The position numbers and the translations under genes are program-made. Positions 28,884 through 34,304 of a stretch of DNA of 64,000 nt are shown here, piece after piece. The DNA is from Escherichia phage PSD2002: sequence record OK335775.1. One strand, written 5' to 3'. The stretch's first letter is position 1. Each line of letters opens with the position of its first letter. The notes under the pieces are model-generated. The model saw nothing but the letters and a program-made list of their open reading frames with translations, was not told the origin of the DNA and made no database searches.

Positions 28884-29176
28884 TGACTGATGAAGAACTT
28901 TTTGAGTTCTGTTATTTCTCACGTAAGGTCCGAAGAGAGGACCTTACTGCAAATTTCGAGTATGCTTATTTCTATCCATTAGAATATGTATTCATGACAG
29001 GCCCCTTTAAGGGCTCTCGTTTTAGATGTCATGCACCAAGCATCCGATTAATGAAACAGGTTCCTTACTTTACTCTGGAATTTATTTCTGGGCCGTGTAA
29101 GGGTATTATCACTCGCAGTCTCTTAACTTATGACCAAGAGATTCATATGATTTCTGACTGGAAAAAATATGTCTAA
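28880..29176 (+). CDS. hypothetical protein
   Basis: ATGA overlap with the upstream stop. Confidence 0.4.
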   Translation: MMTDEELFEFCYFSRKVRREDLTANFEYAYFYPLEYVFMTGPFKGSRFRCHAPSIRLMKQVPYFTLEFISGPCKGIITRSLLTYDQEIHMISDWKKYV

Positions 29177-30191: not shown

Positions 30192-30938
30192 ATGGAAACT
30201 ATAAAATATCCATATGACTACTATAAAATAATAAATGACGCCTTATCTAGGGATACACCTAATGATGCCTATACAGAAAAGCACCATATAATACCGAGTT
30301 GCGTTGGTGGTCCTGACACTCAAGACAATTTAGTTGAGCTTTATGCTGACGAACATTATTTGGCCCATATGTATCTAGCCAAAGCTAATCCAAACCACTA
30401 TGGGTTGAATTTTGCTTGGCTAAATATGAGCTCTACTTCAAATTCAAAACAAAGGTCTTATTTTGTAGATTCTGAAAATTATAAGTTGGCTAAAGAATCA
30501 TTTTCAAAATTGCAATCTATTAATAAAATTTTATTTTTCTCTAAAAAGGAAAATAGGGCTGCTCATTCAATGGCTTTAATAAAGTATTTTGAAAAGGAAG
30601 GCTCTAAAGAACGGCTCAAAGAAATTTTAAATTCGCCAAAAGTAAAAGCTAAAATGTCTGAAAAACGGGTTAAGTATTTTGAAAATCCTGAAAATAGACA
30701 AAAATTTAAAGCCATACAAAATTCTAAAGAAACTATAGAAAGGAAAAAAGCCTCTTTGCGGAAATCCCCTATATGGCATGAACCGATGTATTCACAATTA
30801 TATAAATTATGGGTAGATAATAATAAACTCAAGTGTGGAAGATTTAGTAAAATCGCAATTAAGAACGGCTTCCCTAATGTAGATTACCGAGGACTTATTG
30901 ATTATGATTTTTCTAAAAAAAACTTAAATATTCTTTAA
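30192..30938 (+). CDS. freestanding HNH homing endonuclease
   Basis: HNH motif EKHHIIPSCVGGPDTQDNLVELYADEHYLAHM; C-terminal basic module shared with the endonuclease at 53672. Confidence 0.7.
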   Translation: METIKYPYDYYKIINDALSRDTPNDAYTEKHHIIPSCVGGPDTQDNLVELYADEHYLAHMYLAKANPNHYGLNFAWLNMSSTSNSKQRSYFVDSENYKLAKESFSKLQSINKILFFSKKENRAAHSMALIKYFEKEGSKERLKEILNSPKVKAKMSEKRVKYFENPENRQKFKAIQNSKETIERKKASLRKSPIWHEPMYSQLYKLWVDNNKLKCGRFSKIAIKNGFPNVDYRGLIDYDFSKKNLNIL

Positions 30939-31462: not shown

Positions 31463-31819
31463 ATGATTAAGCAGATGACTATAGCGCTTATGTTGATTGC
31501 TCCGGGAGTATTAGCGTCACAAGTTTATGATAGTAATAATTCAATTGTCGAGTATGCTACCCGTACAGCAAAAGATTATTGTCATCCGAGTAATACTGAA
31601 TGCATTATCGAATTCAGTTCAAAAATCACGGCTGCTTTTAAAGATGGGCAGAACGACGTAGAGCATCGACGAATGAAAGAGAAAACTCTTTCTAAAAGAT
31701 ACGAGCAACGTCTAAACGTTACTGAATGTATTCCATCTGATAAAAAGTACAAAGAAATGTGCGCGTCTATGGTAGACAGACTCGTTGACTCGTACAACCG
31801 AGGATTAAACTCTAAATGA
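31463..31819 (+). CDS. secreted/periplasmic small protein
   Basis: Signal-peptide-like N-terminus MIKQMTIALMLIAPGVLASQ. Confidence 0.45.
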   Translation: MIKQMTIALMLIAPGVLASQVYDSNNSIVEYATRTAKDYCHPSNTECIIEFSSKITAAFKDGQNDVEHRRMKEKTLSKRYEQRLNVTECIPSDKKYKEMCASMVDRLVDSYNRGLNSK

Positions 31820-32283
31820 TTATTGATTATATTAAGGGCGATATTGTCGCCCTGTTTCTTCAAGGTAATAATGTTGCACACGGGTGCAACTGTTTCCATA
31901 CAATGGGTTCAGGTGTAGCCGGACAATTGGCTAAGGCTTATCCACCTATTCTCGCTATCGATAAAACAACTTGTTTAGGTGATTTGGCAAAACTTGGCAC
32001 GTTTACTCAAGCTACAGGTAATAATGGCCAAATTTGCTATAATTTATATACCCAATACGAACCGGGCCCTAATCTTGATTACGGTGCTTTAGTAAACTGT
32101 ATGATAGAATTAAACCGTACCGCAAAGGGTCTTTTGTTTAAACCAAGAATTTATATCCCTCGTATCGGTTGTGGTATTGCTGGTGGTGATTGGGACAAGG
32201 TTTATCAATTGATTAATTTGTTTACTCCTGATATTAATTTAGTGGTGGTAGATTATGAAAGCCCATTACCCGCATCCGTTTGA
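31816..32283 (+). CDS. macro-domain protein (ADP-ribose binding / processing)
   Basis: GDIVALFL...NVAHGCNCFHTMGSGVAGQL and PRIGCGIAGGDW match macro-domain signature blocks. Confidence 0.6.
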   Translation: MIIDYIKGDIVALFLQGNNVAHGCNCFHTMGSGVAGQLAKAYPPILAIDKTTCLGDLAKLGTFTQATGNNGQICYNLYTQYEPGPNLDYGALVNCMIELNRTAKGLLFKPRIYIPRIGCGIAGGDWDKVYQLINLFTPDINLVVVDYESPLPASV

Positions 32284-32467
32284 CCCTAAAAATAAAGCGG
32301 AAATTATTCGACACTGGTCCGAAACCCGAGTAACTAAATGCCCTATAAAAAGTCAACACAACACCGATAAATGGTATATCGGTGAATATGTTGAATATAC
32401 TTTTATAGATAAAAATAAACGTAAGCAGCATGTAGAAGAATATTGCTTAAAGGTACAATGGTTATGA
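32255..32467 (+). CDS. hypothetical protein
   Basis: 70-aa ORF overlapping the macro gene end. Confidence 0.35.
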   Translation: MKAHYPHPFDPKNKAEIIRHWSETRVTKCPIKSQHNTDKWYIGEYVEYTFIDKNKRKQHVEEYCLKVQWL

Positions 32468-34273: not shown

Positions 34274-34278
34274 TCAAA

Positions 34279-34304
34279 GGTCTCACTTCGGTGGGACCTT
34301 TTTT
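34279..34304 (+). terminator. rho-independent terminator
   Basis: GGTCTCAC-TTCG-GTGGGACC followed by TTTTTT. Confidence 0.7.

Follow-up and report, generated by a model that had tools for sequence, protein, structure and literature searches.

The tk.4 Locus of Escherichia Phage PSD2002

The window analysed here is a 64,000-nucleotide stretch of DNA from Escherichia phage PSD2002 (sequence record OK335775.1). A gene for a small macrodomain protein lies within it between two neighbours, and the following features were assigned:

31463–31819, + strand: vs, valyl-tRNA synthetase modifier, upstream neighbour (PHROG 1256, E 3.8e-34; annotation in Bp7, WG01 and T4)
31800–31804, + strand: candidate Shine-Dalgarno sequence GAGGA, 11 nt 5' of the ATG, read from the sequence
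31816–31819, + strand: ATGA, overlap of the tk.4 start codon and the vs stop codon, read from the sequence
31816–32283, + strand: tk.4 (adfM) coding sequence, 155 aa plus stop, single-domain macrodomain protein (open reading frame, Pfam, PHROG 335, match to T4 Tk.4, AlphaFold2 model)
31876–31926, + strand: residues 21–37, AHGCNCFHTMGSGVAGQ, Gly-rich stretch assigned by alignment as the phosphate-binding loop
32053–32055, + strand: Gln80 codon CAA, at the catalytic-Lys position of DarG (K80) and TARG1 (K84) and corresponding to SCO6735 Gln85
32158–32193, + strand: residues 115–126, PRIGCGIAGGDW, second substrate-binding (diphosphate/distal ribose) loop, assigned by alignment and conservation
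32255–32467, + strand: tk.3 (DUF7202), downstream neighbour (Pfam DUF7202, E 6.6e-37, residues 1–70 of 70)

The open reading frame list and its translation give tk.4 155 codons, an ATG start, a TGA stop and boundaries at exactly 31816 and 32283 on the + strand. The original prediction had described a 155-aa frame with three signature blocks at this position, and all of them are present in the translation, as KGDIVAL (residues 7–13), NVAHGCNCFHTMGSGVAGQL (residues 19–38) and IGCGIAGGDW (residues 117–126). The Pfam Macro match, the match to PHROG 335 and the many homologs, the best of which reach E 1e-97 in the protein collection, indicate that tk.4 is not a chance reading frame. Stop codons are abundant on the reverse strand of the gene, and two antisense frames at 31582–31899 and 32234–32431 are unsupported and were taken as spurious.

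Because its spacing to the tk.4 ATG is rather long, the GAGGA sequence is regarded as a candidate ribosome-binding signal only. The 4-nt overlap between vs and tk.4 is also found in Bp7, WG01, and T4, and suggests that the two genes are translationally coupled within one operon. A promoter scan around tk.4 revealed no convincing promoter of its own, and a hairpin at 31835–31853 returned by the terminator scan lies within the coding sequence and is probably due to chance.

PSD2002 Encodes the Dhakavirus Ortholog of T4 tk.4

Between positions 29000 and 35000 the window is 94–97% identical to the genomes of the Dhakavirus phages IME540, WG01, Bp7, and PSD9, which are T4-family Straboviridae. The PSD2002 protein aligns with T4 Tk.4 over 155 of 155 aa without large gaps (54% identity, E 3e-63), and both belong to PHROG 335, which matches the PSD2002 protein with E 1.8e-67. 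The gene order regB–vs.1–vs–tk.4–tk.3–tk.2–tk–…–rI is common to T4 and PSD2002, and its segment from vs to tk is identical across T4, Bp7, WG01, and PSD2002. In Bp7 and WG01 the ortholog is annotated as tk.4, "phosphatase," and "similar to bacteriophage T4 Tk.4." The vs gene provides synteny context and has no functional link to tk.4.

The T4 and PSD2002 proteins are alike in their length of 155 aa, in their position between vs and tk.3, and in the invariant residues H22, N25, and Q80. They differ in the second loop, which reads GCGIAGGDW in PSD2002 and GAGIGKGNW in T4. The tk.3 start overlaps the final 29 nt of tk.4 in PSD2002, as it does in Bp7 and WG01, whereas the overlap is 4 nt in T4. 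The gene at 31816–32283 is the Dhakavirus ortholog of T4 tk.4 (adfM). The original prediction had thus assigned the correct class, a phage macro-domain protein, but had not recognised the gene as the named and conserved tk.4, which is already described and for which reversal of DarT modification is already a hypothesis in the literature.

Tk.4 Adopts a Macro Fold

Profile search, structure prediction, and fold search agree with the earlier macro-domain call. The profile comparison that had been proposed as a check gave 33.8 bits against Pfam Macro (PF01661; E 3.6e-8, profile positions 2–117 of 118), above the gathering score of 22 bits, so that the assignment to a macro fold stands. The structure prediction proposed alongside it, an AlphaFold2 model built from a 65-sequence family alignment, reached a pLDDT of 93.2 and a pTM of 0.88. 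Its strands and helices alternate as expected, and the model and the Foldseek comparison both display the three-layer α/β/α arrangement of macrodomains. Against the PDB, Foldseek returned 132 matches at E ≤ 1e-3, and the best 50 of these are natural macrodomains or designed OSH55-series hydrolases (TMq 0.62–0.76). The top matches are all ALC1-class hydrolases, the natural ones being TARG1, Poa1p, BT1257, DarG, and SCO6735 (TM 0.69–0.76); among them, cleavage of thymidine-linked ADP-ribose is established for TARG1, DarG, and SCO6735 (PMC9411070; PMC13036486).

The nearest solved structures by sequence are Bacteroides BT1257, Streptomyces SCO6735, yeast Poa1p, DarG, and human TARG1. A profile of the 65-sequence Tk.4 family matches BT1257 with E 2e-19, TARG1 with 2.6e-17, SCO6735 with 1.7e-16, Poa1p with 7.7e-15, and DarG with 1.9e-11. 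PSD2002 Tk.4 is a macrodomain, and the conservation of its binding-loop motifs makes it a putative ADP-ribose-binding protein.

A Glutamine Occupies the Catalytic Lysine Position

Profile and multiple alignments place T79-Q80 of PSD2002 Tk.4 opposite T83-K84 of TARG1, T-K80 of DarG, and G-Q85 of SCO6735. Q80 is invariant in all 117 collected homologs, in 80 of 80 homologs from bacterial genomes, which were found with a scan pattern that left Q80 out, and in all 6 of the distant phage homologs, which come from other virus families. In the first loop, H22 and N25 align with SCO6735 H24 and N27, and N25 also corresponds to N23 of PhiKZ AdfM. H22, G23, N25, G33, and A35 are invariant in 116–117 of the 117 homologs, and P115, G118, and G120 of the second loop are invariant in the same set. 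A122, present in 107 of the 117, stands at the position of the catalytic Asp125 of TARG1. D49 and Y78 are invariant residues specific to the Tk.4 family. The most fitting description of the Tk.4 family is that of a sister clade inside the ALC1/TARG1-like class, with Tk.4 as a protein that would work like SCO6735 or DarG while being a member of neither family.

Tk.4 as a Probable Anti-DarT2 Factor

The functional evidence comes from T4. A HIDEN-SEQ transposon screen of T4 on a host with DarTG2 gave tk.4 as its only significant hit, and a clean tk.4 knockout is sensitive to DarTG2; the gene was renamed adfM, for anti-DarT factor Macrodomain (bioRxiv 10.1101/2025.11.20.689424). A further factor had been predicted, since T4 without adfA and adfN is still resistant to DarTG2 (PMC11825919). 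The authors of the T4 study go only as far as to say that an enzymatic removal of the ADP-ribose on DNA "seems likely" (bioRxiv 10.1101/2025.11.20.689424). The Tk.4 protein of T2 has been detected in infected cells. As a peripheral observation, ArcZ contacts tk.4 mRNA in T2, and the protein level is unchanged.

Phage T5 serves as the DarTG2-sensitive control in these studies (bioRxiv 10.1101/2025.11.20.689424; PMC11825919). A search of its unique 111.6 kb with PSD2002 Tk.4, T4 Tk.4, PhiKZ gp104, Mycobacterium tuberculosis (Mtb) DarG, SCO6735, and a Demerecviridae homolog found no macrodomain homolog, the best tblastn match having E 0.69 and the family HMM scoring 7.8 bits with filters off. This is as an anti-DarT2 role predicts, although as a single case it weighs little. 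The T5.105 protein, annotated "Sir2," was considered as a hidden macrodomain and rejected: it carries a HAD-like DxDGV motif and has no macro similarity.

We put at about three in four the probability that tk.4/adfM encodes a stand-alone ALC1/TARG1-class macrodomain that most likely serves in counter-defence by hydrolysing the ADP-ribosyl-thymidine made by DarT2 on phage DNA. We hypothesize that Tk.4 would be made during infection from the regB–vs.1–vs–tk.4–tk operon, while host DarT2 attaches ADP-ribose to thymidines of single-stranded phage DNA at TNTC motifs and thereby blocks replication. The ADP-ribose would be held between the Gly-rich loops MGSGVAG and GCGIAGG, and hydrolysis of the N-glycosidic bond between ribose and thymine would release free ADP-ribose and leave intact DNA. 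The chemistry would probably differ from the lysine-dependent reaction in DarG and TARG1, because Gln80 replaces the lysine as in SCO6735. In that enzyme, Q85A and Q85E are inactive, H24, N27, and K34 were mutated in the same study, and the authors propose that Gln orients the substrate in a water-mediated mechanism (PMC9411070); Gln80 may similarly orient the substrate so that an activated water can attack it. By analogy with SCO6735, we infer that PSD2002 Tk.4 hydrolyses ADP-ribosyl-thymidine by such a Gln-type mechanism.

Several points count against this reading. Tk.4 has neither the lysine of DarG and TARG1 nor the mobile loop and the K34 and K89 residues that are tied to DNA activity in SCO6735, and its scores on DarG models are far too low for a DarG. 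The T4 data come from a preprint, and the PSD2002 ortholog is only 54% identical to the T4 protein. Protection also need not be enzymatic, since catalytically dead SCO6735 Q85A still inhibits DarT in vitro by binding, more strongly than DarG or TARG1 mutants (PMC9411070), and AdfA and AdfB are direct DarT inhibitors (PMC13309987). Tk.4 could by the same token bind DarT2 or ADP-ribosylated DNA and act as a stoichiometric block, like AdfA and AdfB. We consider this quite improbable: the active-site residues are strictly invariant in phage and bacterial homologs, including those of bacteria in which the clustering of neighbours at 80 loci shows no recurrent DarT-like partner, which argues for selection on catalysis, and the 155-aa, single-domain PSD2002 protein has no equivalent of the C-terminal DarT-binding domain of DarG.

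For the function of the protein, the original prediction had offered both reversal of DarT-type DNA ADP-ribosylation and the processing of ADP-ribose-derived signals, and had named Thoeris hosts among its proposed checks. The former is supported by the DarTG2 sensitivity of the T4 knockout; for the latter, the literature search found no support. That Tk.4 acts on the gcADPR or His-ADPR signals of Thoeris, or reverses the marks set by the phage's own Alt, ModA, and ModB, appears very improbable. The macrodomains of type II Thoeris effectors do bind His-ADPR, and T4-family phages carry ADP-ribosyltransferases of their own. However, the literature search found no phage macrodomain of the Tk.4 family tied to Thoeris, and the anti-Thoeris factors known so far work as sponges. 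The T4 ADP-ribosyltransferases modify arginine, and an arginine-specific macrodomain is reported as a special case among hydrolases. Between 29 and 34.5 kb of the PSD2002 window there is also no genomic linkage to Thoeris or to Alt/Mod.

The gene is labelled "phosphatase" or "hypothetical protein" in thousands of phage genomes, while the best current evidence marks it as an anti-DarTG2 counter-defence factor. Better annotation of tk.4 would help to predict phage host range on DarTG-carrying E. coli, Klebsiella, and Salmonella.

Distribution, Origin, and Breadth of Substrate

By tblastn, 2,736 of the 50,697 phage records searched contain a Tk.4 homolog, with carriers that include Straboviridae, Felixounavirus, Pakpunavirus, Ackermannviridae, and Vibrio Thalassavirus. 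A scan of bacterial genomes, one per species, found at least 500 loci with Tk.4-type proteins of up to 44% identity, among others in Rhodobacteraceae, Undibacterium, Desulfobacterales, Verrucomicrobiota, and Bacteroidota. The bacterial frames are mostly about 150 aa and single-domain. When the neighbouring frames at 80 of these loci were clustered, no family recurred in more than 9, and those that did recur resemble lineage-specific housekeeping synteny. The lack of a widely shared neighbour argues for the capture of a stand-alone hydrolase and against descent from a DarTG operon. An orphan antitoxin was rejected on the same ground, as no partner emerged from the clustering.

The same solitary setting of the bacterial homologs, without a toxin partner, also suits another explanation, namely that Tk.4 is a generalist ADP-ribose eraser or a metabolite-processing enzyme for which the anti-DarT2 effect is one activity among several, or a side activity. 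Its substrates might include ADP-ribose-1''-phosphate, O-acetyl-ADP-ribose, Glu/Asp-linked protein ADP-ribose, or uracil-linked ADP-ribose on RNA. Database labels read "phosphatase," "Poa1p-like," and "O-acetyl-ADP-ribose deacetylase," Poa1p is among the best fold matches, and a 2022 comparative-genomics survey held that phage Macro domains mostly target soluble ADP-ribose derivatives. SCO6735 acts on protein ADP-ribosylation too (PMC9411070; PMC13036486), and uracil-linked ADP-ribose on RNA is cleaved by SCO6735, DarG, and TARG1 alike (PMC13036486). In addition, NAD-salvage genes (nicotinate phosphoribosyltransferase and PRPP synthetase) adjoin the homolog in Pakpunavirus EM and Vibrio phage BBMuffin, which counts against the anti-DarT2 reading by hinting at a metabolite substrate. 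However, the labels come from motif similarity and not from assays, the T4 entry reading "contains A1pp phosphatase motif"; no NAD-salvage linkage is seen in the PSD2002 window; and DarTG2 sensitivity is the only known phenotype of a Tk.4 ortholog. We therefore regard a generalist role as unlikely to be the better account, and note that it is compatible with an anti-DarT2 role, the two not being exclusive.

A wider proposal can be offered tentatively, and we would not expect it to hold in full. Tk.4-type proteins may form a very widespread and distinct Gln-type, short-loop clade, with family-specific invariant D49, N76, Y78, and Q80, that phages took from stand-alone bacterial housekeeping hydrolases and not from DarG antitoxins. 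Relative to PhiKZ gp104, this would make them a second, convergent origin of AdfM with lysine-independent chemistry, possibly able to erase several base-linked marks (on thymine in DNA and uracil in RNA) made by more than one toxin.

Comparison With Known ADP-Ribosyl Hydrolases

SCO6735 and BT1257, Gln-type ALC1-like macrodomains, are the best sequence matches among solved structures, at only 26–27% identity. They resemble Tk.4 in having Gln as the residue at the catalytic position, in the His and the Asn within AHxCN, in the GCGxAGGxW loop, and in their occurrence as stand-alone genes. SCO6735, with Gln85, cleaves the ADP-ribosyl-thymidine DNA made by DarT more efficiently than DarG or TARG1 and protects cells from DarT (Hlousek-Kasun et al., 2022; PMC9411070). 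However, the extended mobile loop of the SCO6735 type, about five residues longer than in DarG and TARG1, is absent from PSD2002 Tk.4, in which 8 residues lie between Q80 and Y89, whereas the loop of SCO6735 has 13 and that of BT1257 has 14; a length of 11 is found in most of the bacterial Tk.4-type homologs. The DNA-contacting lysines of SCO6735 are likewise without counterpart in PSD2002 Tk.4, where S32 takes the place of K34 and the segment around K89 is deleted. The predicted pI is 5.5 for PSD2002 Tk.4, 9.7 for SCO6735, 5.05 for PhiKZ AdfM, and 5.9 as the median of the Tk.4 family. As a test of DNA binding, net charge proved uninformative, since the proven PhiKZ enzyme is equally acidic, and the acidity of Tk.4 is thus no argument against activity on DNA.

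TARG1 (OARD1) is the top Foldseek match (TM 0.75–0.76) and has a mobile loop of the same short length, but PSD2002 Tk.4 has Gln80 and Ala122 where TARG1 has its Lys84/Asp125 dyad. For Poa1p (TMq 0.73–0.75), the sequence similarity covers only the N-terminal half, residues 3–44 with a single sequence and 3–89 with the profile. The DarG macrodomain is alike in fold class (TM 0.69–0.70) and in presumed substrate, DarT2-modified thymidine, but PSD2002 Tk.4 lacks both the catalytic K80 and the C-terminal DarT-binding domain of DarG, and no darT gene lies next to it as one does next to DarG. On the NCBIfam DarG model NF048014, which has a cut-off of 250 bits, PhiKZ gp104 as positive control scored 137.8 bits over the same macro region, T4 Tk.4 30.3, and PSD2002 Tk.4 24.3; the PADLOC DarG model gave 132.9, 36.0, and 30.2 bits, respectively. 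The Gln in place of Lys and these scores of 24–30 bits rule out DarG membership for PSD2002 Tk.4.

AdfN, the NADAR anti-DarTG1 factor of T4, follows the same strategy of erasing the DNA mark of the toxin instead of inhibiting the toxin itself (PMC11825919). Its NADAR fold is unrelated to that of Tk.4, however, and it removes only the guanine-linked ADP-ribose made by DarT1, with no action on DarTG2 (PMC11825919).

PhiKZ gp104, also called AdfM, strips DarT2-installed ADP-ribose off a DNA oligonucleotide in vitro (Morgan et al., Cell Rep 2026, PMC13309987). It protects against DarTG2, and N23A lowers its activity (PMC13309987). Like Tk.4, gp104 is a single phage macrodomain of similar size, and its N23 is the equivalent of N25. 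In contrast to Tk.4 with its Gln, gp104 is of the DarG type, with E 9e-25 to Mtb DarG and the catalytic-Lys motif FPTK, and its identity to the Tk.4 family is 18% (hhalign probability 96.7%). The two proteins were probably recruited independently and then named alike. The invariance of Q80 and the DarG scores divide AdfM into two subfamilies, a Lys-type (PhiKZ) and a Gln-type (Tk.4). That one name covers two subfamilies with presumably different mechanisms matters for the design of catalytic mutants and for any transfer of PhiKZ biochemistry to T4-like phages.

Architecture of the tk.4 Transcription Unit

The macrodomain gene tk.4 lies within a run of genes extending from regB to rI, along which four features stand out:

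30192-30938, + strand: HNH homing endonuclease ORF, 248 aa (PHROG 655, E 4.4e-36)
31835-31853, + strand: terminator-like hairpin, 8 bp, GC-rich (AGGGCGATATTGTCGCCCT), followed by a T-rich stretch
32255-32283, + strand: 29-nt overlap of the tk.4 3' end with tk.3
34276-34301, + strand: strong intrinsic-terminator-like hairpin, 11 bp, with a tetraloop and T-run

The 11-bp hairpin is located 3' of the rI.-1/DUF5856 gene and plausibly marks the end of a regB-to-rI transcription unit that includes tk.4. The 8-bp one sits within the tk.4 coding sequence, spanning the KGDIVAL codons, and is probably a chance occurrence, although an influence on the start of translation or on its coupling is conceivable. 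At its other end tk.4 runs into tk.3 (DUF7202, residues 1-70 of 70 matched). Confidence in the structure model is low (pLDDT ~47) solely in the Tk.4 tail that falls within this overlap, ESPLPASV. The 29-nt overlap is also present in the related Dhakavirus genomes Bp7 and WG01, whereas in T4 it is only 4 nt.

The HNH ORF, for which a Pfam search returned no match, is positioned as an insertion separating regB from vs.1. Dhakavirus IME540 carries a copy, and Bp7 and WG01 are without it, with coverage of this stretch in the latter two only ~86%. Because the GTG start of vs.1 (30941) lies directly 3' of the HNH ORF, and the encoded N-terminus is unlike the Bp7 leader MKKVLATLLL..., the 5' end of vs.1 may have been remodelled by the insertion.

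Macrodomain Genes in Other Phages

Nicotinate phosphoribosyltransferase and ribose-phosphate pyrophosphokinase are enzymes of NAD+ salvage or reconstitution. In two unrelated phages, a Tk.4-type macro gene directly adjoins such genes: the former in Pseudomonas phage EM (L084:1-1980; L-numbered coordinates are internal to each retrieved stretch), and both in Vibrio phage BBMuffin (L088:632-3414). This proximity suggests some connection of ADP-ribose release with NAD+ regeneration. The macro gene of Geobacillus virus E3 (L089:510-1953), annotated "Appr-1-p processing-like protein," adjoins GP184, a "toxin-antitoxin-like protein," making a phage-borne toxin/macro pair possible.

Some other phage homologs have additional regions joined to the macrodomain: ~100 aa C-terminal to the macrodomain in Salmonella phage D1-2 (L085:1495-2280), ~90 aa N-terminal in Escherichia phage VivaForever (L086:1222-1956), and an acidic ~45 aa C-terminal in Klebsiella phage Magnus (L087:1438-2043).

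Annotation and Nomenclature

Phage T5 gene T5.105 (L091:7588-8094) is annotated "Sir2 (NAD-dependent deacetylase)" and lies ~300 nt downstream of T5.102, a Sir2-annotated gene. Its sequence opens with a HAD-phosphatase-like motif (FLDIDGVLN), and macro similarity was not found in it. The RefSeq product name looks wrong.

The name AdfM has been coined twice independently, for T4 Tk.4 (bioRxiv 10.1101/2025.11.20.689424) and for PhiKZ gp104 (PMC13309987). Judged by sequence comparison, the two proteins belong to separate macrodomain subfamilies (18% identity), T4 Tk.4 being Gln-type and SCO6735-like, whereas PhiKZ gp104 is Lys-type and DarG-like.
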